The notes below the pieces were generated by a model that saw only the letters and a list, made by a program, of their open reading frames with translations, made no database searches and had not been told where the DNA came from. 64,000 nucleotides of DNA from an uncultured Elusimicrobia bacterium (GTDB lineage Bacteria > Elusimicrobiota > Elusimicrobia > UBA1565 > UBA9628), in NCBI GenBank assembly GCA_964510095.1, contig CAZEAE010000001.1:232551-296550 (forward strand), written 5' to 3'. The position numbers were made by a program, and so were the translations under genes. Shown here piece by piece: positions 20,201 to 57,523 of this stretch; positions within the stretch are counted from its first letter, which is position 1, and every line of letters begins with the position of its first letter.

Positions 20201-23200
20201 TCCCGACTGAGAAAGCGGATGGAAATCCTCGACGCCGGCGCCGGGATCCTTCCAGCGCGGCAGCACCGCCGCGGAATTGGCGTCCTGGGAGCTGGCGGCG
20301 CGCCAGGCAGCAAGCAGGTCATAGCTCAAGAGCCCCCACAGGGCCGAGTTCGCGCTGTTGGAGCTGTAGAAGTCGTTGTAATCAGCGGAGAAGCCCGTCT
20401 GGCTGTCGCCGGAGACGGCGATCGTCGCCGAGGCGCCGGTCACCGAGAAGCTGCTGGAAAGGACGTTGTTCTTGACGGCCACGCCCGTCGAGCCGCTGTG
20501 CAGGCGCAGCACATAGGCGTTGGTCAGGGGAACCGAGGCCGCGCCATAGAGGTCGTTGAACTTCAACGTCGAGTTTACCGCCCCCGCCAGAGAGACCGCC
20601 TCGAAGCCGCCCGCGCTCAACACGTCGGGCTGGGAGATCCGGTTGTGGTCGACGACCAATCCGGCGACGCTCCTGGCGTGGAGGCCGTAGGCGGTGAAGG
20701 CGCCCATCGAACCCGCGGCGCGGTAATAGATCCCGTTGTTCTGGATCGTCGCCCCGGTGGCCAGGCCGTCGAGGTAGATGCCGTAGGTGTCGTAAGCCGC
20801 CGACAGCGTCGGCAGGACCGTGTTCGACGCGATCCAGAGCTGCGTCCCCGCTTGCTGGGTGGCGGCGTAAACGGCGTAGCGGCCGCCTTGGAATACGTTG
20901 GTGGAGAGGACGATCCGGCCCTTGTTGCCGTCCGCGAGGAACAAGGCCCGTCCCTGGGCGCCGCCTGAGACCGTGGACGAGGAGAGGCTGAGGTTGACGC
21001 TGGTGCTGGAGAGCACCAAGCCGTCTCCCGCGGCGATAGTGACGGCCAAGACGCTGCCCCCGATGACCGTGCCGGTCGAGCCCGAGACGTAGACCGCCGT
21101 CGAGCCCTGGATGTAGGAGCCGAGGATGGTGTCGGAGGAAGAGTTTTGGACATAGAGTCCGTAGCCCGTCCCATTGGAGGCCATGGTGCTCATCGAGATC
21201 ACCGTGTTGGTGTTCAAGGCTAGGTAGGCGCCATGGCCATTGGCGCTGTAGGCGTATATCTGGCTGAACGAGTTGCCGGAGCAGCCTTGGACATCCAGCG
21301 CGGCGGACGACGCGTAGATGCGCGCGTTGGTGACGGTGTTGCTGGGCGAGGCGTTGAAGGAAAGGCCCACCTCCTGAGCGACCTGGATGTAGACGTCGGA
21401 GACCGTCGTATGGTGGTTGCCGCCCCAGGCCCAAAGGCCGTAGGCGCCCGCGATGAAGGTGCTGGCGCTGACGGAGGTATAGTTGGCGCCCTCATCGAGC
21501 CCCAGCGCCCAGCCGGCGCCCATGTTGCGGAGGAAAGAGCCGGTGATCGCCGTGCCGCTGCTCCACTGGGCTCCGATCACGTCTACGGCGGAGCTGTTGG
21601 TGACGCCGGTGCTGTAGGCGATCGTGTTGTAATCGGAGCCGACGTCCAGATATATCCCCAGCGCGCCGGACAGGTTCTGCACGTAGGAGCCCGTGACCGT
21701 ATTGCTGTCGGAGTGGCTCAAGTAGAGCACGGAGTTGGTTGTGGCCGCGCTCGCCGCATTCGAGACCATGGTGCTGAGGCTGATCGCGTTGTAGTCGGAG
21801 CCGGCGACCAGGCGGACGGCGGGGCCCGCCTGGCTCAGGAAGTAGGCGTTGGCCACCGTGTTGTTGTCGGCCGTGGAAAGAAAGAGCGCGCTGAAGCCGG
21901 AGCCGGCGGCGGAGGCCGTGCTGTAGAGGATCGTGCTGCCCAAAGAGGCGTTCAAGCGCAGGCCGTCGGCGCTTTGGACGGTGATGCTGCTGTCGGCGAC
22001 CGACGACCAGCTGCTCACCGCCACTCCCGCCGTCCAGATCTTGCCGCCGGAATCGACGCTGACCCTGGCCAGCGTCACATAGGCCGAGGAAGCGTAGACC
22101 CCGTAAGCCACCGTGTTGGTGGTGATGATGGCCATGTTCGTGATCGTCACCGAGGCGTTGGCCAGATAGAAGGCGGCGGTGGACCCCGCCGGCGGGTTTA
22201 TGACCGCCGGACCGGCCTGGGAGGGGTCGGCCGTGACGAAGCTCAGGCGATGATCGTTCATCGCCAGGCCCGACACGCTCACCTGCTCGCTGTAGGTCTG
22301 GGTGTCGCGGATGACCACGCAGGAGTCGACGGCCAGGGAGCCGCCGAAGGAGGCCAAAGCGGAGGCGATCGTCGTGAAGGCGTAACCGGTCTTGGCCACC
22401 TCGGCGGCGACGGCACAGCCGAGGGGCAGGCCCAAGGGCGTGACCACGGAGCTGATCGACACGAAGTTCGGCGCCCCCCTCCAGTTGAGGCCGCCCACGC
22501 GCAGGTAGTAGGTCGTCAGCCCGCTCAAGCCCGACACCGTCAGCGTGCTCAAGGCGGCGTTCGGCGTGGAGGATGAGAAGATCAGCCCCGTGTAGGTCGG
22601 AGAGGTGGAGGCTTGGAGCAGGTAGCCTTCCGCCGTCTTGGAAGAGGCGTCCGGCGGGCTCGATGGCAGCGCAAACCAGTTGGCGGTCACGCTCGCCCCG
22701 TTGACCGCGTAGACGGCGGCCGCCAGCACGGGCTTGCTCAGCGTGCCGCTGTCGCCCAGGACCGTGAAAGGCCCCCCCGCCGAGGTCGACACCTGCAGGT
22801 AGTAGCTGGTGTTGGGGAGCAGCGACACGGCCCCGCCGAAGGTGGCGAAGAGGTTGAGCGTCGTCGAGCTCTGGTTGCCGGCGAAGACGTTGGGCCAAGG
22901 CGCGCTGGAGAGGTTCGCGGTGTAGCTCAGCCCCGGCGGGAAGCTCGAGTCCCAATGGACCGTCACGCTGGTGGCCCCGATCGCCGTCCAGCTGGAGGCG
23001 CTGATCACGCCGAAGACCGGGAAGGTCCAATTCAAGTTGTTGCCGCGGTCCAAGCTCGAGGCCGCGGAGATGGCGCCGCCGCCGCTGGAGTCGATGTCCT
23101 TCACCGCCGTGAAGCTGACGTCGGAGAAGACCGCCGTCATCTTGCCGCGCGTCCCGTCGGAGCTGCTCCTGATCGTCTGCCTCGTGCCCGCCGCCTGGCC

Positions 23201-26044
23201 GTTCAACACCAGGCTGGTGACCTGCATCGCCGAGCCCAAGGAGTCGAAGACCAGCGTCGTCGAGGGCTGCGTGGCGATGAAGATGCCGACCGGGACCTCC
23301 GGCAGCGTGAAGGTCGAAGACGTCTGCACGTAGAGGTTGGCGAGCGCGGTCGCGTCGCCCTCGCCGGTGGTGTAGAAGCGCTGAGGCGAGGTGCCCGCGA
23401 TCACGGTCGTGCTGAGAGAGGAGTCCAGGTAGCCGTTGGCCAGGACGATGTTCTGGTGGAAATACTGGTAATGACTTCCCGCCGTGTGGCTCCCGGACAA
23501 GACGGTGAAGTTGCCGCGCACCTCCAGGTCGGACAGCAGGGTCTCCATGACGCCCGCGGCCGCGAGCTTGTTGATGACCAAGTGGTTGAACCGGGCCGGC
23601 CCGGCGGTCAGGCGTTTGATCTTCGACACCCCCCCGCCGGTGAAGACGACCGTGCTGCCCGCCACCGTGCTCGTCGTCCTCATGTCGCCCACGAGCCAGT
23701 CGCCCGTGACCGCCAGCGCGCGCCCGTTGAGGTCGAGCATGGCGGAGGAGCCGGCGTCGAAGGTCGCGCCGCTGGAGATCGACAGGTCGACCGTGAGCGT
23801 GACGGTGCTGGCGTAGCCGCCCGTGATGCTCATGCTTGCCAGCGTCACCGCCAGGTCCCAGGCGCAGGGCGACGTCGGCGTGGTGTTGCCGAAGACGACG
23901 GAATCGCCCGCGGCGGGCGCCCCCGACGGGACCCAGTTCGCGGAAGCCGATGCCGCCGAGGAGCCCCCGCCGTAGCTCCAGGTCTTCAGCGCGCCGCCGC
24001 CCCCGCCGATGAACGTCCAGTTCGTGTTGCCGCCGCCGTCGACGCTGTTGCTCGCGGTGACGGCGACGCCCAAGCTGGAGTCGATATCGCGCGCGTAGAC
24101 GAAGGCGAGCGTGGGCGCCGAGCCCAAGGTGAGCTGGGCCGCCACGCCGTCGGAGCCGCCCCGCAGCTGGACGCGCGACGAGGCGGCCAGGCCGCTGACG
24201 GTCATGCTGGCGATTTCCGTCACGCTTCCGCTCTCGAAGAGCACCGTCGCGTTGGGCTGCGTGGCGACGAAGACCTGGATATCCGACTGCACCAGGCTGA
24301 TCACGGCCGGGGTCTGGATGAACAAGGCCCCGATGTTGGTGACGCTGCCCACCGCGGCCCCCACGGCGGGGCCCAAGGACTGAGGCTGGCTGCCGGTGAA
24401 GACCAGCGTGCTCACCGAGACGTCGACGGCGCCGTCGCCGACGAAGAACCCGCCGTGCAAGCGCTGGGTATGGGCGCCGACCAGGTAAGCGCCGGTCGAA
24501 GCGGTGAAGGTGCCGAAGGTCTCGATGTCCGACAGCAGCATCAGCGTCGCGCCGCTGGCCTTGGCGGCGACCAGACTGTTGAAAAGAGCCGGCCCGCCCG
24601 TGGTGCGCAGGATATGAGAGGTGCCGGCGCCGTAGAAGGTCACGCTGCTGCCGGCCACCGTGCTGGTCGTCTTGACGCCGCCTGCGGCCCAGTCTCCCTG
24701 GACCGACAGGTTGCGCCCGTTGAGGTCGAGCTTGGCCGAGGAGCCCGCGTCGAGCAAGACGCCGCTGCTGACGGTCAGGTCGACCGTCAGCGTGACCGTG
24801 CTGGCGTAAGCGTTGGTGACGCTCATCGACGTCACGACGACGGAAAGATCCCATGTGCAGGGCGCCGTCGGCGTCGTGCTGCCGAAGACGACGTAGTCTC
24901 CCGCGCCGGGAGGCCCGCCGGCAGCCCAATTGCCGGCGTTGGAAGCCAACGCGGAGCCGCCTCCCCAGCTCCAGAACCGCGTCGCGCGAGGGTCGCCGCC
25001 GGAGAAGGTCCAGCCCGTGTTGCCGCCGCCGTCGACGCTGCTGGTGGCGGTGATGGCCGTCCCCTGAGAGACGTCGATGTCGCGGACGAACGCGAAGCGC
25101 ACCGTGGGAGCCGTGGTGATGACCTGCGCCGCCTGGCCGGCGACCAGGCTCTGGATCTGGATGCGCGAGGTCGCGGCCAGACCGCTGATCGTCATGCTGG
25201 TGATGCTGATAGGGTCGATCGGCGTCTGCAGGATCAAGGTCGAGCTGGGCTGGGTGGCCACAAGGACGGCCACCTGCACGCCCGGCAGCGTGATCGCGGC
25301 CGGGGCCTGGATGAAGATCGCGCCGATGAAGGTCGCGCCGCCCTCGCCATTGCTGGCCAGCGCCTGCGGCCGGTCGCCCACGAAGACCAGCGTGCTGACC
25401 GACACGTCCAGGAAGCCTTCGGTCAGCAGGAGGCCGCCGTGGAGATGCTGGCTATGCTTGCCGGCCACATGGTTTCCGGTCAAGATGGTGAAGAGGCCGA
25501 AGACCTCTATGTCCGACAGCAGCTGCTCGGTCTGACCGGCCGTCTTGTCGATGACGAGATAGTTGAACCGGGCGACCCCGCCGCCGGTCCGCGTTATGTT
25601 CGAGGTCCCCGTCCCGTAGAACGTCACCGTGCTGCCGGCCACCGTGCTCGTCGTCTTCATGCTGCCTACGGTCCAATCGCCCTGGACGGAGAGGTTGTGA
25701 CCGTTGAGGTCGAGCATGGCCGAGGAACCGCCGCCGAGCCAGACGCCGCTGCTGACGGTCAGGTCGACGGTGAGGGTCACGGTGCTGGCATAGGACCCCG
25801 ACACGCTCATGGAAGCGATGGTCAGCGCCAGGTCCCAGGTGCAGGGTGAAGTCGGGGTGGTGTTGCCGAAGAGGACGCCGTCACCATCCGTGGGAGCGAC
25901 GCCGCCGATCCAGTTGGCGGGGTTGGAAGCCAGGGCCGTGCCGCCGGCGTAGCTCCAGGTCAGGTCGGCCGCCTGCGCGGCCGGGCTCACCATGAGGGCG
26001 AGGAGGAATGCTCGTGCCAACGACTTATAAGAGGAAGTGCTCAT
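8252..26044 (-). CDS. Giant (5,930-aa) secreted modular adhesin-like protein. It contains N-terminal repeats, parallel beta-helix (PbH1/pectate-lyase-like) modules, a long fibronectin-III-like domain array, an Ig-like region and a T9SS-type C-terminal sorting domain (Por_Secre_tail / FlgD-Ig-like)
   Basis: A single uninterrupted 17.8-kb ORF with an N-terminal signal peptide (AAQA-AD). Repeated NTV...GS..NT beta-helix rungs are present. There are about 27 units of ~93 aa with a conserved W, Y..Q.STD.F and TTYY.RV (FN3-like). The C-terminal ~95 aa (VRVYPVPFKP...GGYFAVI...KSIIKRLSIIR) fit the T9SS CTD consensus. Confidence 0.85.
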   Translation of the reverse strand: MSTSSYKSLARAFLLALMVSPAAQAADLTWSYAGGTALASNPANWIGGVAPTDGDGVLFGNTTPTSPCTWDLALTIASMSVSGSYASTVTLTVDLTVSSGVWLGGGSSAMLDLNGHNLSVQGDWTVGSMKTTSTVAGSTVTFYGTGTSNITRTGGGVARFNYLVIDKTAGQTEQLLSDIEVFGLFTILTGNHVAGKHSQHLHGGLLLTEGFLDVSVSTLVFVGDRPQALASNGEGGATFIGAIFIQAPAAITLPGVQVAVLVATQPSSTLILQTPIDPISITSMTISGLAATSRIQIQSLVAGQAAQVITTAPTVRFAFVRDIDVSQGTAITATSSVDGGGNTGWTFSGGDPRATRFWSWGGGSALASNAGNWAAGGPPGAGDYVVFGSTTPTAPCTWDLSVVVTSMSVTNAYASTVTLTVDLTVSSGVLLDAGSSAKLDLNGRNLSVQGDWAAGGVKTTSTVAGSSVTFYGAGTSHILRTTGGPALFNSLVAAKASGATLMLLSDIETFGTFTASTGAYLVGAHTQRLHGGFFVGDGAVDVSVSTLVFTGSQPQSLGPAVGAAVGSVTNIGALFIQTPAVISLVQSDIQVFVATQPNATVLFESGSVTEIASMTVSGLAASSRVQLRGGSDGVAAQLTLGSAPTLAFVYARDIDSSLGVAVTASNSVDGGGNTNWTFIGGGGGALKTWSYGGGSSAASASANWVPSGAPAAGDSVVFGNTTPTSPCAWDLAVTLASMSITGGYASTVTLTVDLSISSGATFDAGSSAMLDLNGRALAVTGDWLVGDMRTTSTVAGSTVVFTGGGVSKIKRLTAGPARFNHLVINKLAAAGVMETLLSDLEVRGNFTVLSGSHTAGSHYQYFHQNIVLANGYLDSSLSTTVIAGTSPQRFYTTGEGDATALANLYVQTSSTFTLPEVPVGIFIATQPSTTLVFDSLGSAMQVTSLVLNGQAAGTRQTIRSSSDGTRGKMTAVFSDVSFTAVKDIDSSGGGAISAASSLDRGNNLNWTFPVFGVISASSWTAIGATSVTVHWDSSFPPGLSYTANLSSAPWPNVFAGNQSSTTLNLFATFGGAVSLLPNTSYYLQVSTSAGGPFTVLGDSGTLSKPVLAAAVYAVNGASVTANWFALPSSPPDASSKTAEGYLLQASTSPTYTGLIFSSSTPNAALSTLTVSGLSGLTTYYLRVGGLNWRGAPNFVSISSVVTPLGLPLGCAVAAEVAKTGYAFTTIASALASFGGSLAVDSCVVIRDTQTYSEQVSVSGLAMNDHRLSFVTADPSQAGPAVINPPAGSTAAFYLANASVTITNMAIITTNTVAYGVYASSAYVTLARVSVDSGGKIWTAGVAVSSWSSVADSSITVQSADGLRLNASLGSTILYSTASAAGSGFSALFLSTADNNTVANAYFLSQAGPAVRLVAGSDYNAISLSTMVSNAASAATTNSVLYLSHSDSNTVTGSYVQNLSGALGIYLDVGSDYNTIAYSTGVTNSSAVDVIGAQWSSGTAITGSFLRNMGAGWALGLDEGANYTSVSASTFIAGAYGLWAWGGNHHTTVSDVYIQVAQEVGLSFNASPSNTVTNARIYASSAALDVQGCSGNSFSQIYAYSANGHGAYLALNTNTVISMSTMASNGTGYGLYVQNSSSDTILGSYIQGSTAVYVSGSTGTVIGGSVLAVTIAAGDGLVLSSTSVNLSLSSSTVSGGAQGRALFLADGNKGRIVLSTNVFQGGRYAVYAATQQAGTQLWIASNTVLPTLSAAYDTYGIYLDGLATGATIQNNGIYYRAAGSMGAFTAYGLHARSVAGLVVDHNRISQPDVLSAGGFEAVSLAGAVNSTLKFNDLYGAASVPLTNAYVLRLHSGSTGVAVKNNVLSSSFSVTGASATIAVSGDSQTGFSADYNDFYSSNSANSALWGLLSYDLLAAWRAASSQDANSAAVLPRWKDPGAGVEDFHPLSQSGRWNPATGSFAADAQTSQTIDRGDPLLGAGLEANPNGGRANQGSYGLTAEASQSYLDLPAGCGAGYNVKQDGSKDYTTIQAAVTALSFLGTDSCVVVRDTQTYNEQVTVQNLANNGFRLTIMADPGFISSAPVINPPTASTAAFLVINDSVTLQHLTVITTNTVAYGVWSSSAYVTLSSVNVDSGGKIWTAGVAVSSWSSVSYGSITVQSADGLRLNYAIRTTVQYSTVAVSGDDFHALYLTASDSNTVTGSYFQHSAAGYGAFLTNGSDYNVISQSSLACNHASALALLVIASDNNTVTGSVISNLQGQGVGMNTGADYNTFSQSVLSANSATAAAFFLSDCDHNTVVDSTIRNTAGDGAILVTGSDYNAIIRSTMTSAAVAADLYPLYIGESSSNTIVDSYIQGSTAAVIHGSTATVIGGSVLIATHTAGSALWMSAGSLDLSLSTSTLVGGAQGAGLFVDEGNSGRLLISTNSFPAAARYAVYAATQQPGTQLWISSNTVLPSLSASRDTFGIYLNGLVSGATIQNNGIFYRSAGSMGAFTSYGLYAQSAAGLLIDRNRFGAPGMITAGSHEAVKFSGTTNSSFKSNDVHVAGAGLTNAYGLSVLSGSTGVKVKDNVFLSSTAVIGSSATISVSADSQPGFVSDYNSYYSSNAYSTGFWGAAAYALTSAWTAGSGQDANSLDGQHPYWADPSAGVEDYHPRSPRGRYDPGTGGFVVDGVLARSIDAGDPAEAVGLEPSPNGSRLNAGSYGGTAEASKAAPAPTGQIAGAVDLSSITLTFGAVASDGYNAQAATDPGFASVISSATANAASTQLSPQGLALNTTYYVRVGALYGSAVVYPLGAAVSTPTLAAVPAEGSEAVVFTSSIIVSWAANGNPAGTLYSAQLSTDAFVTINESSRTMGSAAAFLNLLPNTTYQARVQAINHAGLATDFGASLATATWAGDLQGVSLYGVFATSVTVNWVPLALSPPDASSKTSSGYVLVASTAADFSGTQFSSATSNVALSTLSLTGLSNATYYLRLGALNWNGSANYSFVAATHTASSLPPGCLTGFNVKQDGSMDHVTLQGALNAMPPGLTGDACLVIRDALTYSEQVTIQGFSNNGYRLRIMADPTFVSSAPVFNPPAGSTAAFLVFNDSVTLQQISIITTNTVAYGVWSSSAYVALSSVSVDGRAGIWSAGVRVSSGSSIERSSITVLAGHGLVITGPWSVVSYATSAVVGAGDAALVLDGASSSTITNGRFYGNFGGAQLKNGAHDNVISLSTMTGNGGLSISVGSYSNIITQSYAAGFVSGGAFIGGNYNTLSQSVITGNSSIDVNGAFNTLTGLSIPSPGGYGLVLSGGADYNTVTLSTISVLRLTGGSYNTVSRSLLSAPVITGGSIGNLVTLSTITAGLQFLEGSSNTVSSCYIEGSTAVIVAGATGTVVSSNFLAATSALGSGLWLRSGSVNLSMSSNTVSGGAQGAGIALEAGAGRLILSTNTIRTGAQYGIRVAAQGAGAQVWITSNTVLPTLSTSLDTYGIHLNGLITGATIQDNGVYYRTALAIPGVTAYGLYALGSSGLVIDHNRFNEPGKITSGSHEAVSLWATTNSSLLFNDLHATGANFNNAVLLSVRSASTGVQVKGNVFLSSFSVSGASATIEVSADSQSGFVSDYNDFFSSAVLNSGTWGASSYDFLAAWRSGTGRDLNSLAAQPLWNDASGGVEDFHPRSQRGRWDPAAAGFVVDGVTALTIDAADPAAAAGLEASPNGARANLGSYGQTLEASKSAPTAAPVLLGVSGSSVTLSWALAASDGYSAEVSSVADFSSGIVSSVTTNGSSTQLSPQSLLPNTTYTLRVGTLYGAVYNYAASGATATWAHPPVAAVFSVGLSSHGLSWGRNGNPEGTLYAVEQSTDAFLTLNASSWTLNAGATFFGLVSNKDYSLRVRALGHGGTATAFLTPSSSFTLTADPASTSTAVNLSSAVLTWSSPSNDVGTPYDAQVSTDDFATVNLTSATLSQSATFTALTPNTTYYLRVRSSGHYGPGGFAAASPSVTLPDLPVSPAVSGVWVTSAALSWAAGGNPAGTEYLAQDSTDAFVTVNSSSRTLLTSATFFGLLSNATHYLRVAAWSHAGAQTAFAVAAATATSAAEPASAPPSAITANSLQADWSPNGNAPLTTLYEAQISTDAFSTLRESSATLNVSAGFGGLLSNTTYYVRVRASGHDGRLSAFTVLPATMTLLLPPVPAGSSFFLVEQSSVAVQWNSGGNGPTTVYVAQVSTDGFATLNFSSSTLNLTVLYGAGGAGPALSPNTTYQFQVRATGGGNSSADIPLGSTSTLAAVPAASAALPSVSSMSLTWTSAGNGAGTVYQAELSTDVFVTLNASSQTLSLSATFQALVPNTTYYLRARAVNNNGVPSSYAAAMTTVTLPAPPSPSLAAINLSSMTVDWLANADPAGTVYLAQLSTDAFTTLNTSSQTLNLSATFQALVPNTTYYLRVQAIGWAGALSPFASAAAAPTLAATPAGASLTAVELSSAALSWSANGNPAGTRFAVQLSTDDFSTLSASSSTLLTSATFFGLLSNATYYLRVQALSHAFAATGFAVGPATATPPALPVSAQPSAVAAAAFQANWSANGNAPLTTRYEAELSTDTFATLNESSATFNAAAGFAGLLSNTTYYVRVRAFGHGGQVTGFATLPSTTTLLLPPGLTAGSFLAVETASAAVQWTSGGNGPGAFYAAELSTDAFATVNFSSLTLSLSTLFGSGGAGSALSPNTTYFFQVRTVGPSNVSANVALGSTSTLAAPPAAPAAGPSVSSMSLTWGSGGDPAGTRYQAQLSTDAFTTLNITSQTLNVSATFQALVPNTTYYLRVRALNSNELPTVFIAAAPAFTLPASPAAPALSAIALSSMTLDWSADGNPAGTVYLAQLSTDGFTTLNLSSQTLSLSATFQALAPNTTYYLHVQALGWGGSSPFAQAAAAPTLAVTPAAPFLSAVELSSAALSWGAGGNPAATPYLAQISTDAFTTVNASSNTLLTSATFFALQSNATYYLRVQAFNAASMPTAFVAVVATATLPAEPAALAPTFVGPAAVTANWTANGNASGTLYEARVSTDEFSTLNASSGTYGVSAAFAGLSANTTYYFQVRALGHGGRLTSLTTLPSTTTLLAEPGAGAPSLVAVDFASVTVSWTDGGNPPGTGYEADLSSDAFASVNFSSSTLNLSVVFGAGGAGADLLANTTYYFRVRARSGANASTVKDLGSAASPAFSPSATEVLSVTSSTVSLDWLPQGNPDPGTVYELWRDVSAAFASPVKTLVSVTDAEAAGLSPSTTYYFKARTLGHNGGVTTFDATVSTRTEPAAPGQPGVPVGAALGVSSISWTWGAAADAVGYYVFPASNTASIIGNPAAAAFSHLGLATNTAYGLVVAGINVSGQGPLSAAATAYTLAAPPTGSVISLVQGTSATISWSLNTNPADTLAEVQHSTDNAAFSLVSLSSVVAYADTGLLGCTTYYLRVRNRNGDAVATAFDGTVSFVTLASTPSAPSGLAANALTGNRISLSWTASPTEGITAYKLYYDAGTGAVDFVTPAAVFTSTETSYTTGVLVSSPTYLFALRAAHRCGVEETSGVYASASSTASVSAVRAQIKSPVSGKRIAGDRVTVSAQLLSGTDAQTKSVLFQYKASSDTAWLPVVPAGPTQTNGDLSAPWFLHWDVTGLTATSYDLRAVAADISDSSDTTPGVVTVVVDPAGWDVRERLVGSLITREEVLNNGAPQAITGAGVGSLVTKIDLPAGSLSGSSTTVSVVNSPVLPAAAPEGTQDVGISMSITLGNGQTLLSGGNSATLTFTYLDANDDGILDGTSLRAQDLKLYSFDTVTNQWTADLTTTIDLVNHTVYGATRHFSFFAAFPLAGAANLDTVRVYPVPFKPNGVNPDEGRPFSPGNVNSGIVFDNLPAAVTIKVFTVSGKLAAQFSSANSGGRLQWNARNEDGRELATGGYFAVIASPGQKSIIKRLSIIR
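8255..8560 (-). other. C-terminal sorting domain of the giant protein (T9SS CTD-like / FlgD Ig-like fold)
   Basis: The sequence is YP.PF.P......F.......V.I.V.T.SG......L.......G.Y...W....E.G...A.G.YF. It ends in a basic stretch, as Por_Secre_tail domains do. Confidence 0.6.
10100..14300. repeat. Higher-order tandem repeat of about 1.38 kb, about 3 copies, each encoding five FN3-like units, inside the giant gene. Boundaries are approximate
   Basis: Near-identical DNA blocks recur at about 10.14, 11.52, 12.88 and 14.26 kb. At the protein level a five-domain block (e.g. GTVYLAQLSTDAFTTLN...TTYYLRVQAIGW) is reiterated. Confidence 0.7.
14800..23000. repeat. Tandem repeat of about 2.9 kb, 3 copies, each encoding a ~960-aa module (FN3-like pair plus PbH1 parallel beta-helix). 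Boundaries are approximate
   Basis: Highly similar DNA occurs at about 16.73, 19.69 and 22.09 kb (gacgccgtaggccacggtgttggtcgtgatga...). The protein modules begin GC..G(F/Y)NVKQDGS and contain VVIRDTQTY..QV and VDSGGKIWTAGVAVSSWSSV. Confidence 0.7.
23000..26000. repeat. Tandem repeat of about 1.0 kb, 3 copies (~330-aa N-terminal modules of the giant protein). Boundaries are approximate
   Basis: Similar DNA at about 23.80, 24.79 and 25.78 kb (gtgctggcgta...ctcatcg...caggtcccaggtgcaggg...). The protein repeats begin TWSYGGGS.ASNA.NW..GG.P.AGD.V.FGNTTPTSPC.WDL. Confidence 0.65.
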
Positions 26045-26146: not shown

Positions 26147-26887
26147 TCAGTCTTGGAGCCGGAAGATGATGTTCTGGGGGAGCTTGACCGGCACCGGCCC
26201 GCCGCGGCCGACGGCCGGCGAGAAGCGCATGAGCGCGGCGACCTTGCGCGCGGCGGCGTCGAAAGCCGCTCCGGCGGAGGCCGTGACGTCGACGGGGTCG
26301 ACCTTGCCGTCGACGCCTATGTGGAGCGCGACGACCACCGTGCCCTCGCGCCCGGCGCGCCGCTCGCTCTCGGGATAGAAGCGCCGCAGATTAGCCAAGA
26401 CCTCGTCGCGGTTGAGCAGCTTCGGCAGCTGCAGAAGCGCGGCTCCGCCGTTGCCGGTGCCGCCGGGCACGCCGTCATCGGAGCCCGCCCCCGAGCCGCC
26501 GACCTTGGCCGCCGTGCCTTTTCCATCCACCGCGCCTCCCGAGGTGGCCGCGGGCGCCTCAGGAGCCTCGATGACCTTGGTCTGCGGGCCGGGCAGGACC
26601 CAGTCCTTCGGCGGCTCGACCGGCTTGACCACCGGGGCGGCGACCGGGCTGTCCACGGGTCGCGCCGGAGCCTTGGCTTCGGGCGCCAGCTTTTTGGGGG
26701 CGCCAAGCTTAGCCGGGCCGGTGCCCAGAAAAGAGGAGGTCAGGTCGATCTCCGCCGACGGCGACGGCGCCCATGAAGGCAGGCTCAGCCCGTGGGCGGC
26801 CAGCCAGAGGCCGCAGTGGAACAAGACGGAGGCGGCTAAAGCGCGTTGAAAGAGGCCCTCTTCCGCCGTCAGCTGCCGCAGCTTCAC
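26147..26887 (-). CDS. tonB: TonB-family energy transducer: N-terminal TM helix, Pro-rich linker and TonB C-terminal domain
   Basis: TM helix ASVLFHCGLWLAA; PEAKAP/KPVEPP proline-rich region; the C-terminal block REGTVVVALHIGVDGKV...F.PA...G.PV fits TonB_C. ATGA overlap with exbD. Confidence 0.65.
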   Translation of the reverse strand: MKLRQLTAEEGLFQRALAASVLFHCGLWLAAHGLSLPSWAPSPSAEIDLTSSFLGTGPAKLGAPKKLAPEAKAPARPVDSPVAAPVVKPVEPPKDWVLPGPQTKVIEAPEAPAATSGGAVDGKGTAAKVGGSGAGSDDGVPGGTGNGGAALLQLPKLLNRDEVLANLRRFYPESERRAGREGTVVVALHIGVDGKVDPVDVTASAGAAFDAAARKVAALMRFSPAVGRGGPVPVKLPQNIIFRLQD

Positions 26888-27276
26888 TTGACCTCCAGGC
26901 CGATCTTGCGCACCCCCGCTCCGCGCACGACGTCGAGCAGGGCTACGACCTCGCCGTACGGCAGGGTCTTGTCCGCCGACAGCGAGACATGCAGGTCGGG
27001 ACGGGCCTTGGCGAGCCCGGACAAGGTCTTGGCCAGCTCGGCGGCCGTCGTCAGCTTTCCGCCCAAGGCGACCTGCCGCTGAGCGTCGAAGAGTATCTGC
27101 AGCGTCTCGGTGGCGGTGCGTTCGTGGTGGGCGGCCTTGGGCACCTCGACCTTGAGGGCTCGCTTGGCGATCATGGGCGCGGTGGCCATGAAGATGATGA
27201 GCACGACGAGGATGATGTCGACCAGCGGCGTGACGTTGATGGCGGTGATCGCCTCGTCGCCGCTTCCGGACTGCAC
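26884..27276 (-). CDS. exbD: Biopolymer transport protein ExbD/TolR
   Basis: The motif INVTPLVDIILVVLIIFM is the ExbD signature. The start is assigned to a GTG (VQSGSG...) that overlaps the exbB stop by 1 nt; the longer listed ORF is an upstream-extension artefact. Confidence 0.6.
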   Translation of the reverse strand: MQSGSGDEAITAINVTPLVDIILVVLIIFMATAPMIAKRALKVEVPKAAHHERTATETLQILFDAQRQVALGGKLTTAAELAKTLSGLAKARPDLHVSLSADKTLPYGEVVALLDVVRGAGVRKIGLEVK

Positions 27277-27911
27277 TACTGCCTCCGGCCCGCCGGCGCC
27301 GAGCGGATGTGGGCCAAGAGCAGCCGGCCCAGCAGCTCGGTGCCCATCAGCAGGTCCTTGGCCTTCTTCTGGAAGTAGTTGAAGCCTACGACGCAGGGGA
27401 TGGCCACGATCAGGCCGACGGCAGTCGCGATCAGCGCCTCGGAGAGCCCCTGCATGACGACCTCCGGACCCGAGCCGCTCTCCCCCAGGTCGTGGAAAGC
27501 CTTGATGACGCCCAGCACGGTGCCGAAAAGGCCGATGAAAGGGGCGTTGCTGCCCAGGGTGCCCAAGACCAGCAGGCGCTGCTCGACGCGCCGCCTTTCG
27601 GCCAGGGTGGCCGCGACCATATGGTCCTCGACGCCGGCGGGGCCGTGCTTGGCCTGCTTGAGGCCGGCCAAGAGCACGCGCGCGGCGGCGCCGGGATGGG
27701 CGCGGATGGTCTTCTCCACGGCGGGAAGGTCGCGGTCGTCCCAATCCCCGATGAGCGCGGAGTTGAGCGTCTCGAGGGCGCGCAGCTCTCGGCTGAGCAA
27801 GAGCCCGCGCTCGATGATGACGGCGACCGCCGCGATCGAGCAGAGCAAGAGGCCGTAGATGACCCAATCGCCGCCCGTCAGCGCCAACGACCTTAAGAAG
27901 AGCAGATCCAT
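27276..27911 (-). CDS. exbB: MotA/TolQ/ExbB proton-channel family protein
   Basis: 211 aa with three TM segments. The motif GTLGSNAPFIGLFGTVLGVIKAF is a canonical ExbB/TolQ signature. Confidence 0.75.
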   Translation of the reverse strand: MDLLFLRSLALTGGDWVIYGLLLCSIAAVAVIIERGLLLSRELRALETLNSALIGDWDDRDLPAVEKTIRAHPGAAARVLLAGLKQAKHGPAGVEDHMVAATLAERRRVEQRLLVLGTLGSNAPFIGLFGTVLGVIKAFHDLGESGSGPEVVMQGLSEALIATAVGLIVAIPCVVGFNYFQKKAKDLLMGTELLGRLLLAHIRSAPAGRRQ

Positions 27912-27915: not shown

Positions 27916-28737
27916 TCACCGGTCCTTGAAGCGGTCGAGGTTGAGCAAGGCCGAGACGAGCTCGGCCTTGACGGAAGCGTTGGGCTCGAAGGTCAACTGC
28001 TGCATCAGCTTGCGGTATTCCTCGGCGCCGCCGAGCTCTCCCAGGTAGCGCACGGCCATGGCCCGGAGGAACCAGTCGGTGTGCCGGGCCATGCGCAGCA
28101 AGATCTCGCGGCCGGTCACATCGCCCATGCGCCAAAGCCCGGCGGCCGCGTAGATCTGCATGACCGGAGAGCGGTCGTCGCGCGCGGCGTTGGCCACCTG
28201 GAACTGCACGGCCGGGCTGCCGAGGATGAGCAGGGACTCCAAGGCCCCCAGGCGCACGGTCACGTTTTGATCGATGAGGGCTCCTTGAAAGAGGCCCAGG
28301 TAGCGCAGGTCGCGGGTGTAGGCCAAAGCGACCATGGCGGCGGCGCGGGTCTGCACGTTGCTGCCCTGGCGCACCGTGCGCTCGAGCTCGCTGGTCAGCT
28401 CGAGGTCGGTGACGCCGGCCAAGCCCTCGGTCAATAAAAAGCCCAATTCGGTATAGCGCGTCTTGAGCTGATAGCCCTTCACCGTCGAGATCTTCCCCAG
28501 GTTGCCGATGGAGGAATCGAGTAGGGCCTGGGAATCCGGACGCGCGTCCTGGCGCTGGCGCAGGAGGCGCAGCAGATGCATGTTGATCTGAGGGTCGATG
28601 ACGGCGCTCTTAGGGACCCTGTAGCGCGGCGCCGAGATCTCGAGGTCCTCGAGCCGGTAGGTGGTCAGGTCGACGGCCAGGTTCTGCGCGAGCGCCGCCG
28701 GCGCCAAGACCAGCAGCAGCGCGGTCAGCCCCCTCAC
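27916..28737 (-). CDS. Secreted HEAT-repeat (PBS-lyase HEAT-like) protein
   Basis: A signal peptide ending AALAQ; repeated V(R/Q)..A...LG......A...L..LL.D motifs. Confidence 0.5.
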   Translation of the reverse strand: MRGLTALLLVLAPAALAQNLAVDLTTYRLEDLEISAPRYRVPKSAVIDPQINMHLLRLLRQRQDARPDSQALLDSSIGNLGKISTVKGYQLKTRYTELGFLLTEGLAGVTDLELTSELERTVRQGSNVQTRAAAMVALAYTRDLRYLGLFQGALIDQNVTVRLGALESLLILGSPAVQFQVANAARDDRSPVMQIYAAAGLWRMGDVTGREILLRMARHTDWFLRAMAVRYLGELGGAEEYRKLMQQLTFEPNASVKAELVSALLNLDRFKDR

Positions 28738-29582
28738 TTGGGCACCGTCTTAGGGAAGAGCTTAAGGGCGGCGATGCAGTACTCGGCCACGACGAAGTCG
28801 TTGCTGACCTCGCGGCCGATGCGGGAGGTCATGAGGCGATAATCCTCTGCGGCGCCGTAATCGCCGAGGTAGCGGGCGGCCATGGCGCGCACCAGCCAGC
28901 TGGGGTCGTCCAAAAAGGCGCGCAGGCGCAGCAGGCCGGAGGGGTCTTCCATGCGGGCCAAGCCCGAGGCGGCATAGACGCGCAGGATGGGCTCGTACTC
29001 GCGCTCGGTGGCCATCGACAAGAGCGACATCGACTTCTCCGGATGCCCCCAGACGATGAGCGCCTCGAGGGCGGCGAAGCGCACCGCGGGGTCCAGGTGG
29101 ACCAAGGCCTCCCGGAAGATGTCGAAATGCGCGATATCGTGAAGGCCGGCCAGCGCGACCAGGGCGTTGGCGCGCGTCTCGCCGTTGTTGTCCCAGCGAG
29201 CCAGTTCGATGAGCTTCTGACGGAAGACGGGGTCGGCATTGCGCGAGGAGGCCTCGGACAATGGGACACCGATATTGAGGAATCGGTTCCTCAGCTGGAA
29301 GCCGATGGGCGAGCCCACGCTCAATATCTCGCCTAGGGGCGTGCCTTGCACGTTGGCCAGGTCGACGCGGGCCTTGTCCTTGCGCTCGATGAGGTCGACC
29401 AAGGTGTTGGTGATCTGGGCGTCGGGCTTGACGGCCGGCGCCGGGGGCGGCGCGCCGGCGGCGACGCCGCCCGCGGGGGCCGCGGGACCGCCGGGGATGA
29501 CGGGGGCTTCCACGCAGCCGCCCAGCGCCAGGCCGAGCGCGGCCAAGAAGATCCACCGTCGGGAAGCGTTCATCCTCTTCAT
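28734..29582 (-). CDS. HEAT-repeat lipoprotein
   Basis: Lipobox LALGGC; HEAT-like repeats (DPAVRFAALEALIVWGHPE, DPSWLVRAMAARYLGDYGA); ATGA overlap with the downstream HEAT gene. Confidence 0.5.
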   Translation of the reverse strand: MKRMNASRRWIFLAALGLALGGCVEAPVIPGGPAAPAGGVAAGAPPPAPAVKPDAQITNTLVDLIERKDKARVDLANVQGTPLGEILSVGSPIGFQLRNRFLNIGVPLSEASSRNADPVFRQKLIELARWDNNGETRANALVALAGLHDIAHFDIFREALVHLDPAVRFAALEALIVWGHPEKSMSLLSMATEREYEPILRVYAASGLARMEDPSGLLRLRAFLDDPSWLVRAMAARYLGDYGAAEDYRLMTSRIGREVSNDFVVAEYCIAALKLFPKTVPK

Positions 29583-31051
29583 TCTAACAAAATGTCGGCC
29601 GAGAAGACGCTCAGGCGGGTCGCGGGGTCATCGGCACAGCTGACCGGCAAGCCGGCCTTCTGATGGCAAAGCTCTTCCAGGAAGCGCTTTTTATCCGGCA
29701 GCACGGACCAGACCTGCGGCAGGAAGACGCCGGTCCGCCCTCCCTGTTCCAAGAGGACGCCGTCGCCTTGGGATACTTCGGCGGAACCCTTCACCGGCTT
29801 GAGCCGCGACAAGACGGAGATCTCAAGGCGGACTTGCGCCACTTCTTCGGCCTTGAGCGCCGCAAAGCGCGCGTCCTGCGTGGCGCTGGCCTGAGCCATG
29901 TGCGCCACCGCCTCCGCGAGGGTCTCTTCCGGACGGGTCTGCCCCACGCAGCCCCGCAAAGCCCCGTCGGGCCCGTTGATGGTCACGAACACCGCCGCCG
30001 GGAGGTTCAAGGCCGTCATGCTGGAAAGGGCGATGGGCTCGACCTTAGCCCCGCTCAACAAGCCCTCTATGCTGCGGCGGGCGATCTGCAACAACCGTTG
30101 TCGTAATCCCGGCTGAGCCCCGAGAGTAGGCGGCGCCGGCGCTATCTTCGTGCGCAGAAACAAGCCCGAAGCATAGCCCACGACATGCCGGTAGTCGCGC
30201 TCGGACACCACATCGCCTGAGTTATAACGACTGAGCAACGAGAAGCGATCGGCCCCGAGCTCGCCGGCCGCCGTCATCACCGCAGTCACCGCCCCTTCCC
30301 CGCAATAACTGACGTCGAGATGCGGCAGCGACCGATCGAGCATCAGCCGGTTGGTCAGCCAGAAATACGCGGGGTCCATCGAGGCCAGCGCCGCCAAAGT
30401 GGTCTGGTCGACGAGGTCGGCCGTCCCCCCTTCCGGATAGTGCGACAGGTCGGTGGAGGCGACGAGCAGGACGCGCTTGCCGCGCGCGGCCGAAGCGATG
30501 GCGCTTCCGACGGCGCGGGCCGTTTCGAGATCCTGAGCGTTCATGATCAGCGCCACGAGCTTGACCGCGCCGAGACGCTTGCGCAGGAAGGGCAGTTGGA
30601 CCTCGATGGAATGCTCTTTCTCGTGAGCCGCGGCGTCAGGCCTGATCAAAGGGCTGGCCGCTTCGAGGGCCGCGGCCAGCTTCTCGTCGAAGGCCAGCGC
30701 CCCCTCCGGGGTGGCATAGGCGCCGGGATAGAGCGCGGCGCCCGCCACGTCCCTGGTATGGGCCGTGCCGACGATGATGACCGAATCCCAGCGCCCCGGC
30801 CCGAGCGCGGCATAAGCCTTTGCCGCCGCGGCGCCGGAGAACTCCCAGCCGGCATGGGGCACGAGCAGGGCAAGGACCTCGCCGGAGACAGCCGGGCCTT
30901 TGGCCGCGGCCAGAAGCCTGTCGGCGGCCGCGGCGATGTCCTTGGCTCTCGTCGGGTAGAACTGGCCCGCCATCGCGGGCTGGCGCGGCTCGGCGGCCGG
31001 CGCGGCGGGCGCCATGAGGAAAGCGAGAAGCAGCAGCAACCGAATCTTCAT
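29579..31051 (-). CDS. Memo-like (AmmeMemoRadiSam system protein B) fused to AMMECR1 (protein A), preceded by a cleavable-looking signal peptide
   Basis: N-terminus MKIRLLLLLAFLMAPAAPAA. The Memo motifs are AGQFYP and PHAGWEFSG. The C-terminal AMMECR1 motif is AVFVTINGPDGALRGCVGQ. Confidence 0.7.
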   Translation of the reverse strand: MKIRLLLLLAFLMAPAAPAAEPRQPAMAGQFYPTRAKDIAAAADRLLAAAKGPAVSGEVLALLVPHAGWEFSGAAAAKAYAALGPGRWDSVIIVGTAHTRDVAGAALYPGAYATPEGALAFDEKLAAALEAASPLIRPDAAAHEKEHSIEVQLPFLRKRLGAVKLVALIMNAQDLETARAVGSAIASAARGKRVLLVASTDLSHYPEGGTADLVDQTTLAALASMDPAYFWLTNRLMLDRSLPHLDVSYCGEGAVTAVMTAAGELGADRFSLLSRYNSGDVVSERDYRHVVGYASGLFLRTKIAPAPPTLGAQPGLRQRLLQIARRSIEGLLSGAKVEPIALSSMTALNLPAAVFVTINGPDGALRGCVGQTRPEETLAEAVAHMAQASATQDARFAALKAEEVAQVRLEISVLSRLKPVKGSAEVSQGDGVLLEQGGRTGVFLPQVWSVLPDKKRFLEELCHQKAGLPVSCADDPATRLSVFSADILLE

Positions 31052-31210
31052 TTTCTTGTAATGATTCCGCGACGGAGTCCTGTTAGACTAGTGATGAAGG
31101 CGCGACAACTGCTAGGCGCATCGAGTTCGACAACAGCCTCATACTGAAGCAAGCGACCAGTGCCGCCCTCCGGACTCTCCTCCGGAGGGCGGTTTTTTCA
31201 GCACGTCAGC

Positions 31211-31747
31211 TCACTCGACCTTGCCCACGTCTTGGAAGCTCTTGAGGATCCGTTCGAGCCAGCGCTGGTCCATCTCGTCGAAGGCGGCCGGCTGCTCGCT
31301 GTCGACGTCGAAGACGGCGATGACCTTGCCGTCGCGGTCGAAGACCGGGACGGCGATCTCGCTCTGGTTCTTAGGGTCGCACTCGACGTGCGCCTCGCCC
31401 AAAGCCTTGATGTCGGGCACGATCACGGCCTGGCCGGTCTTGGCCACTTTGCCGCAGACGCCGTGCATGGGCAACGGCGAGCAGGCGGGCTTGTCGCGGT
31501 GCGGCCCCAGCACCAGGGTCTGGCCGCCGCCTTGTAATAGGTAAAAGCCGCACCAGGAATAGGGCGCGCCGCCGAAGGCGTCCCAGAGCATGTCGACGAC
31601 TTCTTTCATCATACGGTCGCTCTTGAGCTCACGCCTGCGCCATTTGCGGTCCAATTCATGGCGCACCTTGTCGTAGCGGGCGCGTGAAGGGCGGCCCTTG
31701 ATGTCTATCTGCTCTTCCGGCATCTCAGGCAAGTCGCTCAAGCTCAT
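31211..31747 (-). CDS. GAF-domain protein (free methionine-R-sulfoxide reductase / YebR-like)
   Basis: WCGFY...GPHRDKPACSPLPMHGVCG is typical of the fRMsr GAF family. Confidence 0.6.
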   Translation of the reverse strand: MSLSDLPEMPEEQIDIKGRPSRARYDKVRHELDRKWRRRELKSDRMMKEVVDMLWDAFGGAPYSWCGFYLLQGGGQTLVLGPHRDKPACSPLPMHGVCGKVAKTGQAVIVPDIKALGEAHVECDPKNQSEIAVPVFDRDGKVIAVFDVDSEQPAAFDEMDQRWLERILKSFQDVGKVE

Positions 31748-32739
31748 GGTTTCGGCTCCGATGCTATCAGTTGGCCGCAGGCTCCCTGGATATCGCGGCC
31801 CAGGTTCTGGCGGACGGTGGCATGCAGGCCCGCCGAGAGCAGCGCGCTCTGGAAGCGGCGCGCGCCCTCCTCGGCGGTGGCCTCGTGCGGCGTGTCGGTC
31901 TGGTTATAGACGATCAGGTTCACGTGCAAAAGCTCGAGGGTCCCCACCGACTTGACCCAGGCGATGAGGTCCTGTGAATCCTGCGGCCGGTCGTTCTCGC
32001 CGCGAAGCATCACGTATTCCAAGAACACCTTGCGCGGCGTGAGCGCCAGGTAAGTCTTGAGCGCTTCGGCCAAGCGCGCCAGCGGATAGGCCTTGTTCAG
32101 CGGCACGAGCTTCGTCCGCAAGGCGTCGTTGGCCGCATGCAAGGAAAGCGCCAGGTTGATCTGAGGGAAATCCCGGCCGAAGCGCTCCATCTGCGGCGCC
32201 AGACCGGACGTGGAGACCGAGATGTGCCGTGCGCCGATGCCGAACTGCTTCTGGTCCATCAGGATCCTCAAGCTCTGGGCCACGGGCTCGTAGGCGGCGA
32301 AGGGCTCCCCCATGCCCATATAGACCACGTTGTCTATGCGGCCGGCAAGCCCCTCGGCCTTCATGTACTGCCGCCAGAAGAGGACCTGGTCGGTGATCTC
32401 CTCGGGCGTCAGATCGCGGGAAAACCCCATCAGGCCGGTGGCGCAGAAGGTGCAGCCGATGGCGCAGCCGACCTGCGAAGAGATGCAGGTCGTCCAGCGC
32501 GTCTCGCTGGGGCGCAGCAGGACCGTCTCGATGACGCGGCCGTCGCTGAGCGTCAGCAGCGCCTTGTGGGCGCGCTTGTCGGCGGAGACCTTCACGAGCT
32601 TGCGCGTCAGGCTCATCAGCGGGAGGTCTCTCTCGAGCGATTCCCGTAAAGAGGCCGGCAGCACCGCGATCTCCCCGTAGGAGGCCGCGGCTTCCGTGAA
32701 AACGGCCCGGCGCAGCTGATCGAGCCGGAAGGCCGGCAT
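31744..32739 (-). CDS. rlmN: Radical SAM 23S rRNA (A2503-C2) / tRNA (A37-C2) methyltransferase RlmN
   Basis: CISSQVGCAIGCTFCATG (CxxxCxxC); MGMGEP; VSTSG; ACGQL. The start is set at the internal Met MPAFRLDQL; the listed ORF extends upstream. Confidence 0.75.
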   Translation of the reverse strand: MPAFRLDQLRRAVFTEAAASYGEIAVLPASLRESLERDLPLMSLTRKLVKVSADKRAHKALLTLSDGRVIETVLLRPSETRWTTCISSQVGCAIGCTFCATGLMGFSRDLTPEEITDQVLFWRQYMKAEGLAGRIDNVVYMGMGEPFAAYEPVAQSLRILMDQKQFGIGARHISVSTSGLAPQMERFGRDFPQINLALSLHAANDALRTKLVPLNKAYPLARLAEALKTYLALTPRKVFLEYVMLRGENDRPQDSQDLIAWVKSVGTLELLHVNLIVYNQTDTPHEATAEEGARRFQSALLSAGLHATVRQNLGRDIQGACGQLIASEPKP

Positions 32740-32780
32740 CTTCAGCGCCTGCAGGGCGACGGACGCGCGCGCCAAGTCCA

Positions 32781-33410
32781 CTAGTAGGTGACCTCCAGCA
32801 CGTCCTTGGAGTCGATGAGCTGCTTGACCACGTCCTTCTGCGTCAAGCGCGCCCCCGAGGTATACCATTCGCTGTAAAAAAGGTCGTTCTTCTTCATCAG
32901 CTTGCGGCGCAGGACGACGACGTCGGCCTCGCGAAAGATGGTCTTGATGTCCTCGATGACCTTCTCGTCGAGCTTGGAGACGATCTTGAAGTTGTGCCGC
33001 TGGCGCCAGTCGTCGATCAGGATGTCCATGCGCGTGAAGACCAGCTGGACGAAGAGCACGGTGGCCGTCGTCAGCGCCGCGACCGTGTACAGTCCGTAGC
33101 CGACGGCCATGCCGATGGCGGCGACGATGAAGATCATGGCCGCCGTCGTCAAGCCGACGACGCGGTCGCCGTCGCGCATGATCGCGCCGGCGCCCAGGAA
33201 CCCGACGCCGGAGACCAGCTGGGCGGCGATGCGCGCGGGATCCGCCGTGAACCGGGAAGAAATGATCGTGAAAAGCGTCGCGCCCAGGCAGATCAGGATA
33301 TTGGTGCGCAGGCCGGCGGCCTTATCGCTGACCTCGCGCTCCAGGCCGATAGCCGCGCCGAGGACCAGCGAAAAAAGGAGTCTTACGGCTTCTTGGCTGA
33401 TGTGTTCCAT
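32781..33410 (-). CDS. MgtC/SapB family membrane protein
   Basis: The motif LGAAIGLEREVSDKAAGLRTNILICLGATLF is the MgtC signature. Only the C-terminal 209 aa of the listed ORF are used; the upstream part is Arg-rich antisense of hemY. Confidence 0.6.
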   Translation of the reverse strand: MEHISQEAVRLLFSLVLGAAIGLEREVSDKAAGLRTNILICLGATLFTIISSRFTADPARIAAQLVSGVGFLGAGAIMRDGDRVVGLTTAAMIFIVAAIGMAVGYGLYTVAALTTATVLFVQLVFTRMDILIDDWRQRHNFKIVSKLDEKVIEDIKTIFREADVVVLRRKLMKKNDLFYSEWYTSGARLTQKDVVKQLIDSKDVLEVTY

Positions 33411-57483: not shown

Positions 57484-57523
57484 GCCGGGATTACAAGGGA
57501 CTCGCCACTTCGGGGAGCGTCCT

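Follow-up and report, generated by a model that had tools for sequence, protein, structure and literature searches.

A predicted exported Memo-AMMECR1 fusion protein at the head of a putative HEAT-ExbB-ExbD-TonB operon in an Elusimicrobia bacterium, with no radical SAM partner gene nearby

The DNA considered in the present work is a 64,000-nucleotide stretch of contig CAZEAE010000001.1 (assembly GCA_964510095.1) from an uncultured Elusimicrobia bacterium; this whole stretch is hereafter referred to as the window. We focused on one of its genes, which codes for a single polypeptide joining two proteins of the AmmeMemoRadiSam system, i.e., protein B (Memo) and protein A (AMMECR1), the third being a radical S-adenosylmethionine (SAM) enzyme. 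Conservation of Memo and AMMECR1 extends from archaea to humans, and both have been linked to disease: MEMO1 with regard to cancer cell motility and to iron and copper handling, AMMECR1 with regard to an X-linked syndrome. In the window, the fusion gene is followed, on the same strand, by two genes coding for HEAT-repeat proteins and by exbB, exbD, and tonB, and it is preceded by a gene for a GAF-domain protein and by a radical SAM gene of the RlmN type (Table 1).

Table 1. Features of the fusion locus and of its surroundings; positions are those of the window.
Feature	Positions	Strand	Details
Memo-AMMECR1 (AmmeMemoRadiSam B+A) fusion gene	29579..31051	-	490 amino acids, ATG start; first gene of the putative operon
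Predicted Sec signal peptide (signal peptidase I type), residues 1-20	30992..31051	-	MKIRLLLLLAFLMAPAAPAA; called from sequence features and comparison
Memo domain, residues 24-296	30164..30982	-	Pfam PF01875, NCBIfam
AMMECR1 domain, residues 321-487	29591..30091	-	LRGCVG motif with C368; Pfam PF01871, NCBIfam
HEAT-repeat lipoprotein gene	28734..29582	-	282 amino acids; lipobox LALGGC; HEAT_2 matches; begins MKRMNASRRWIFLAALGLALGGC
Second HEAT-repeat protein gene	27916..28737	-	273 amino acids; own signal peptide VRGLTALLLVLAPAALAQ; GTGA overlap with the preceding HEAT gene
ExbB gene (MotA/TolQ/ExbB family)	27276..27911	-	211 amino acids; PF01618, 111.5 bits
ExbD gene	26884..27276	-	130 amino acids, GTG start; PF02472, 99.3 bits
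TonB gene	26147..26887	-	246 amino acids, C-terminal TonB_C domain; PF03544, 56.1 bits
Gene for a repetitive secreted protein	8252..26044	-	5930 amino acids; Pfam match at neither end
PorV/UPF0164-like and TPR protein gene	6819..8270	-	next after the gene for the 5930-residue protein
Hairpin	31162..31193	.	13 bp, GC-rich; lies in the 159 bp that separate the fusion gene from the GAF gene
GAF-domain protein gene	31211..31747	-	178 amino acids; between the RlmN gene and the fusion gene
RlmN-type radical SAM rRNA/tRNA methyltransferase gene	31744..32781	-	345 amino acids, with the start taken from the gene called on L001, an identical locus

The translated open reading frame contains the motifs AGQFYP, PHAGWEFSG, and LRGCVG, from which an earlier reading of this DNA, made from its letters alone (hereafter, the sequence-only reading), had recognized a Memo-AMMECR1 fusion; the profile searches bear this out. 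The protein matched PF01875 (Memo) with 168.2 bits (cutoff 27) and PF01871 (AMMECR1) with 130.6 bits (cutoff 25); it also passed the cutoffs of TIGR04336, the model of system protein B (228.6 bits, cutoff 26, model positions 1-269 of 270), and of TIGR04335, the model of system protein A (148.1 bits, cutoff 99). An AlphaFold2 model built from a 38-sequence alignment had a predicted local distance difference test (pLDDT) score of 93.9 and a predicted template modelling (TM) score of 0.90; it was confident throughout except for residues 1-20, and the relative orientation of the two domains was also predicted confidently. Foldseek matched the Memo half with human MEMO1 (TM score 0.80, normalized on the target; E = 7e-19 for 7l5c_D) and the AMMECR1 half with PH0010 (1vaj; TM score 0.77, likewise normalized on the target).

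The five Memo metal ligands, H66, H98, D201, H204, and C250, are retained, fall in columns that are invariant in our alignment (A1), and align with the MEMO1 ligand positions PHAG / GxxH / SsDxxH / CG. In the AMMECR1 domain, L365, G367, C368, and G370 are invariant in the same alignment, and the LRGCVG motif aligns with LRGCIG of Pyrococcus PH0010. Since the residues of the metal site and the LRGCxG cysteine are invariant and aligned with those of MEMO1 and PH0010, both domains look catalytically intact, as far as can be predicted. The same Memo ligand set is found in MEMO1 (Fe- and Cu-bound structures 7kq8 and 7l5c); however, eukaryotic MEMO1 and AMMECR1 (human; Mho1 and Yor289w in yeast) are separate proteins, cytosolic or nuclear, whereas that of the window is a single bacterial polypeptide for which export is predicted. 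The fusion also shares its fold with the LigB-type (class III) extradiol dioxygenases, such as LigAB, 2-aminophenol 1,6-dioxygenase, and DOPA 4,5-dioxygenase (Foldseek E = 1e-5 to 6e-8); nevertheless, Memo is by far its better match, LigB giving in the Pfam search only a weak one. Moreover, the Memo ligand set, which contains a cysteine, differs from the 2-His-1-carboxylate set of the dioxygenases.

The alignment with the Memo profile begins at residue 23, just past the segment that the sequence-only reading had taken for a Sec-type signal peptide. Our own call, made from sequence features and from the comparison with homologues, agrees with it. The N-terminus consists of MKIRLLLLLAFLMAPAAPAA followed by EPRQPAMAGQFYP, with the inferred cleavage point, after A19 or A20, between the two, so that the residues after it begin EPRQP; the predicted signal has two basic residues and A-x-A sites broken by proline, its hydrophobic core spans some 10-16 uncharged residues, and it contains no cysteine. 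In the AlphaFold2 model, residues 1-20 have a pLDDT of about 66, with a helix confined to residues 2-12. The N-termini of the window protein and of its 120 best homologue clusters (121 in all) were then compared. About 86 of them carry an N-terminal extension that is equivalent in place and unrelated in sequence, with a median length of 21.5 residues and a median uncharged stretch of 15.5 residues, which looks signal-like and would be short for a transmembrane helix. The N-terminus is of the lipobox type in eight of the 121, and several fusions among the best 80 genome loci (described below) show lipobox-like Cys sites with a Ser/Gly-rich linker after them. The fact that N-termini of the signal peptidase I type and of the lipobox type swap at one position argues for real export and would be hard to explain otherwise; we infer from this pattern both the export of the fusion protein and its cleavage.

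In principle, the protein could be cytoplasmic if translation started from an internal methionine (M13 or M27) and the hydrophobic codons upstream were left untranslated. The first ATG is preceded only by AAGAAA, with no strong Shine-Dalgarno sequence, and the database gene calls of some relatives begin later, P0002 among them. On the other hand, the residues from R23 to G29, located in part upstream of M27, are at least 90% conserved, and the in-frame hydrophobic extension is kept in the homologues counted above in spite of its unrelated sequence. Furthermore, P0001, which is 93% identical to the window fusion, has a wholly different hydrophobic N-terminus and no internal methionine before the domain, which supports the first ATG as the start; as for P0002, its gene call lacks a signal and an upstream GTG start would restore one, which explains the late call. 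We therefore judge an internal start highly improbable.

A second possibility is that the hydrophobic segment is not cleaved and represents an inner-membrane anchor; this weighs on our interpretation more than the previous one, in that the segment could indeed have such a role. In that case the enzyme would face the periplasm if its N-terminus lay inside, and with an inverted topology it would face the cytoplasm; tethered in this way, it could encounter a radical SAM enzyme anchored in the membrane, and also a lipid substrate. In favor of an anchor, a basic residue precedes the hydrophobic stretch in only 62 of the 86 fusions, and the partner radical SAM enzymes of Elusimicrobiales and Omnitrophota, described below, have an anchor-like hydrophobic helix. 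However, the uncharged stretch of the window protein is only 16 residues long, is broken by Pro15 and Pro18, and has Lys and Arg before it; the family median given above is likewise short for a transmembrane helix; the lipobox-type N-termini and the Cys sites with their linkers point to translocation and processing; and the partner enzymes of most phyla have weakly hydrophobic signals of the twin-arginine translocation (Tat) type. According to these data, an uncleaved anchor appears unlikely.

The sequence-only reading had regarded a fused and exported Memo-AMMECR1 protein as unusual. The fusion of AMMECR1 with a dioxygenase-like (Memo) gene was already reported in 2007 (PMC2034487), and the database annotation of the fusion homologues already reads 'system protein B' or 'B/A'. 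Of the best 120 homologue clusters, almost all have both Pfam domains, in proteins of about 470-510 residues. When a single genome per GTDB species was scanned, at least 587 confirmed relatives were obtained, whose best 80 loci were examined: all of these 80 span both domains, and they come from more than ten phyla, including Elusimicrobiota, Acidobacteriota, Omnitrophota, Bacteroidota, Planctomycetota, Syntrophales, Latescibacterota, KSB1, and Calditrichota. Fusions with signal or lipoprotein N-termini make up most of these 80 loci, just as they account for about 86 of the 121 clusters, so that neither fusion nor export can be considered exceptional; what stands of the earlier proposal is the fusion itself, its signal, and the lack of a radical SAM partner gene nearby.

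Two Elusimicrobia genomes harbor two fusion paralogues each, one with and one without a signal (L009 and L012 in the metagenome-assembled genome JBAYJD01; L090 and L015 in JACRDS01). The paralogues without a signal start M.IRKPAV and form a clade of their own, and within 10 kb of them there is no radical SAM gene.

The presence of a signal is accompanied by a different gene neighborhood. A canonical radical SAM gene lies within 6 kb of the fusion in 49 of the 67 signal-bearing loci and in three of the 16 signal-less ones, and linkage is thus commoner with a signal (Fisher p = 1e-4). All 11 partner radical SAM enzymes tested passed TIGR04337, the model of the system's radical SAM enzyme, with 306-393 bits (cutoff 220); the model, however, begins only at residue 40-91 of these proteins. 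The extensions preceding it could be evaluated in 48 cases, among which the following groups were counted:

i. Extensions in which a strict RR-x-[FLIVMW] twin-arginine motif is followed by a mildly hydrophobic stretch (22 out of 48), e.g., LDRRSFLKCALASGAALG and ISRRDFFKKTAQYGLVLGG.

ii. Extensions with KR or RK variants of the motif (nine out of 48), mainly from Bacteroidota.

iii. Extensions with a hydrophobic helix only, without twin arginine, followed by a conserved PPPxTF motif (12 out of 48), from Elusimicrobiales and Omnitrophota.

iv. Extensions with neither signal nor anchor (three out of 48).

When ten of the partner enzymes were tested with the Tat-signal model TIGR01409, two passed its cutoff. 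Hence the partner radical SAM enzymes apparently carry, as a rule, their own Tat signal or N-terminal anchor, and would look exported too; that the radical SAM enzyme of this system commonly bears what reads as a Tat signal is the more surprising result of this work, and it lies outside the window. Examples of the Tat type are found at L021:1221-2462, L034:8774-9946, L046:4106-5362, and L085:5796-6917, at about 30 more loci, and in the proteins P0123, P0125, P0130, and P0134, among others. We are not aware of any earlier case of a radical SAM enzyme being exported by Tat or working in the periplasm.

A third conserved neighbor, which 38 of the 67 loci with a signal possess, codes for a polytopic protein of 700-850 residues annotated as 'fused MFS/spermidine synthase' (76 bits with NF037959, cutoff 40; PF01564). 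Its predicted topology consists of about seven hydrophobic segments, an aminopropyltransferase-like domain, and then more segments, as at L065:7929-10094, L004:11475-13553, and L026:11474-13639. The abstract of a 2019 article by Burroughs et al. is said to tie Memo contexts to nucleotide-base and isoprenoid modification. In the literature that could be searched, which did not cover Burroughs et al. 2019, we found no description of an exported three-gene variant of AmmeMemoRadiSam; as far as could be found, the variant is therefore apparently undescribed.

We then checked the window for these partners. The radical SAM gene near the fusion had been assigned to RlmN in the sequence-only reading, and most likely this assignment is correct: the protein contains CISSQVGCAIGCTFC, MGMGEP, and ACGQL, it scored 285.4 bits with TIGR00048, just under the cutoff of 290, its orthologue in L002 scored 301.9 bits, and TIGR04337 was absent from its matches at E <= 0.01. 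It would thus be a housekeeping enzyme of the RlmN/Cfr family and not the radical SAM enzyme of the system. The idea that RlmN might act as a stand-in partner was rejected on account of this score and of the missing TIGR04337 match, and also for its position, since the GAF gene and the hairpin-bearing gap intervene; the closeness of the two genes was further discounted as part of a broad synteny that includes HemE and HemY. Probing the 64-kb window by tblastn with five TIGR04337-type enzymes retrieved no such gene, the RlmN core alone being matched (E = 0.001), in keeping with what had been proposed; no MFS/spermidine synthase gene was found in the window either.

The closest relatives give the same picture. 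Six independent loci (L002/L003, L086, L087, L088, L093, and the window, of which L001 is an identical copy) share a gene order that reads CNNM ... HemE-HemY-(MgtC)-RlmN-GAF, then fusion-(HEAT)-ExbB-ExbD-TonB, then Cupin_5, with fusion proteins 52-57% identical to that of the window. None of them has a radical SAM gene of the system or an MFS/spermidine synthase gene (within ±10 kb in most; within the 14 kb of L088). L093 has no HEAT gene and keeps fusion-ExbB-ExbD-TonB. A further relative, L092 (P0035, 50% identity), has a different context, again without a radical SAM gene of the system within ±10 kb; there (L092:8136-9966) the exported fusion has after it an unknown protein of 159 residues, a membrane protein with an HTTM domain, and an FKBP isomerase, in place of ExbBD-TonB. 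At 48% identity or less, the fusions of other Elusimicrobia have a radical SAM gene directly upstream (L089, L091, L004, L008-L010, and L014).

In the neighbor-joining tree, the window clade is the sister of this radical-SAM-linked Elusimicrobia clade, and the remainder of the tree is almost uniformly of the 'signal + radical SAM + MFS/spermidine synthase' type. This sister position, together with the linked state found nearly everywhere else, indicates that linkage is ancestral and was lost in the lineage of the window. The exported loci, automatically annotated, of Acidobacteriota, Bacteroidota, Omnitrophota, Planctomycetota, Syntrophales, and Elusimicrobiales thus have the same fused, signal-bearing architecture as the window, whose sister in the tree is formed by their Elusimicrobia members; they differ from it in the adjacent TIGR04337 gene, with a Tat signal or an anchor, and in the MFS/spermidine synthase gene, neither of which the window has. 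What is specific to the window is the loss of radical SAM linkage at the level of the clade and the placement of the fusion at the head of a HEAT-ExbB-ExbD-TonB operon.

As to this operon, the stop of the fusion gene overlaps the start of the HEAT lipoprotein gene as ATGA, a coupling that the sequence-only reading had pointed out. The second HEAT gene is separated from exbB by a gap of 4 nucleotides, the exbB stop and the exbD GTG overlap by one nucleotide, and exbD and tonB by four. The scores with PF01618, PF02472, and PF03544 all exceed the respective cutoffs, that is, ExbB, ExbD, and a TonB_C protein are encoded together. From these junctions, the fusion gene would be the first of a translationally coupled operon, fusion-HEAT-HEAT-ExbB-ExbD-TonB, and so would be produced together with an envelope energy-transducing module.

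Putting these data together, we consider it fairly probable that the window protein is an exported, periplasmic two-domain metalloenzyme that derives from an exported AmmeMemoRadiSam variant and has become unlinked from its partners. The ancestor would be the widespread form in which a Sec or lipoprotein signal precedes the B+A fusion and the neighbors are a TIGR04337 radical SAM enzyme, itself Tat-signal-bearing or anchored, and often the polytopic MFS/spermidine synthase protein; the window clade of the Elusimicrobia would have lost the genomic linkage to both partners. The fusion would be exported by Sec and released into the periplasm as a soluble enzyme, in which an N-terminal Memo domain (LigB fold, with a His/His/Asp/His/Cys metal site) is joined to an AMMECR1 domain bearing the cysteine of LRGC(V/I)G, and it would be made together with HEAT, ExbB, ExbD, and TonB proteins. 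There it might act on a small molecule or a lipid of the envelope, the two domains working in succession on the substrate, by metal-centered and thiol chemistry. The substrate would probably be a periplasmic or membrane molecule of the envelope rather than RNA.

Some points weigh against this interpretation, in addition to the possible anchor discussed above. To date, no Memo/AMMECR1 pair has been assigned a function, so that the mechanistic part of our reading is inferred. The genomes of the window clade are fairly close relatives and are also syntenic for the unrelated HemE, HemY, RlmN, and GAF genes; given that related genomes share unrelated synteny too, the ExbBD-TonB neighborhood is weak evidence of a functional link. 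Finally, the genome may simply carry the radical SAM gene in some other region. In that case the system would be canonical and complete, only split: a TIGR04337 enzyme, and perhaps the MFS/spermidine synthase protein too, would be encoded at another site and would still work with the exported fusion. Exported fusions of the sister clades and of other phyla are almost always radical-SAM-linked, the fusion keeps all its catalytic residues, and many radical SAM enzymes of this kind are encoded by Elusimicrobia, all of which would fit a split system. It is opposed by the absence of a TIGR04337 gene both from the 64-kb window and from the flanks searched in the relatives (±10 kb in L002/L003, L086, L087, L092, and L093; the 14 kb of L088), and also by the eukaryotes, which retain Memo and AMMECR1 without the radical SAM partner of bacteria and archaea. 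A weak and incomplete check on accession numbers gave no positive match: none of 15 NCBI radical SAM accessions from Elusimicrobia was clearly in the accession blocks of the four genomes compared, which belong to the window clade or are near it (P0002, P0012, P0022, and P0035), the nearest pair, P0022 and P0144, being 6,739 apart. Another pair, P0053 and P0138, is 1,214 accessions apart and was rejected as a fusion and radical SAM enzyme of one genome, since the two belong to different assemblies; P0053, moreover, lies outside the clade. On balance, we regard a split system as a serious possibility, somewhat short of an even chance.

The derivation of the window protein from an exported variant can be taken one step further. 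The parent pathway might be wholly extracytoplasmic, with a radical SAM enzyme exported by Tat, a fusion exported by Sec or as a lipoprotein, and a polytopic MFS/spermidine-synthase-like protein, acting on some molecule of the envelope, for instance a lipid, an isoprenoid, or a polyamine-like compound, and not on RNA; the window clade would in that case have branched off from it, doing without the radical SAM enzyme in the manner of eukaryotic Memo and AMMECR1, and would have been recruited to a periplasmic process energized by TonB/ExbBD. We put this forward as a speculative extension, which we would hold to be rather improbable. A periplasmic radical SAM enzyme, if true, raises the question of how SAM and reducing power are supplied there.

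Compared with the canonical AmmeMemoRadiSam system, which was defined by comparative genomics (TIGR04335 for A, TIGR04336 for B, and TIGR04337 for the radical SAM enzyme), the window protein is alike in passing the A and B models, in its conserved residues, and in its MEMO1 and PH0010 folds. It differs in the fusion of A and B, in the secretion signal, and in its HEAT-ExbBD-TonB operon, and the window has no TIGR04337 gene alongside A and B, as holds for the flanks of the relatives. According to a proposal of long standing, the system modifies RNA bases (PMC2034487). This does not square easily with the existence of an extensive branch of bacteria in which the fusion, and apparently also the radical SAM enzyme, is targeted to the outside of the cytoplasm; the exported branch would narrow the search for the substrate to the cell envelope. 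In this respect, the window clade may be viewed as a natural experiment, in which an exported Memo-AMMECR1 protein with apparently intact active sites persists without a linked radical SAM gene.

Turning to the surroundings of the fusion, a gap of 102 bp with a promoter-like match follows tonB, and then comes the gene for the 5930-residue surface protein. The sequence-only reading had suggested that the enzyme might act on this adjacent surface system; this was not upheld, as the giant protein follows TonB only in the window, and it was rejected as a conserved partner on the ground that the relatives have Cupin_5 in that place. Giant genes (coding for 3766 and 4946 residues) and a PorV-like gene are found also in L089, beside its radical SAM-fusion pair. 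On the other side, the hairpin upstream of the fusion probably marks the boundary of a transcription unit; it was not accepted as a proven terminator, because its T-tract is on the plus strand and both flanking genes are on the minus strand.

In four relatives, the HEAT lipoprotein is one protein of about 550 residues, while in the window it corresponds to two overlapping genes (27916-29582, junction at 28734-28737). The second HEAT protein of the window represents the C-terminal half of the lipoprotein of the relatives, with a signal peptide gained where the latter have a Pro/Ala-rich linker. The GAF-domain protein is kept in all the loci of the window clade; by its conserved cysteine pattern (GVCG...ECD), it may resemble free methionine-(R)-sulfoxide reductase. 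Lastly, the G+C content drops from about 0.65-0.69 to 0.53-0.58 over positions 56000-64000 of the window, and these last 8 kb may be foreign DNA.

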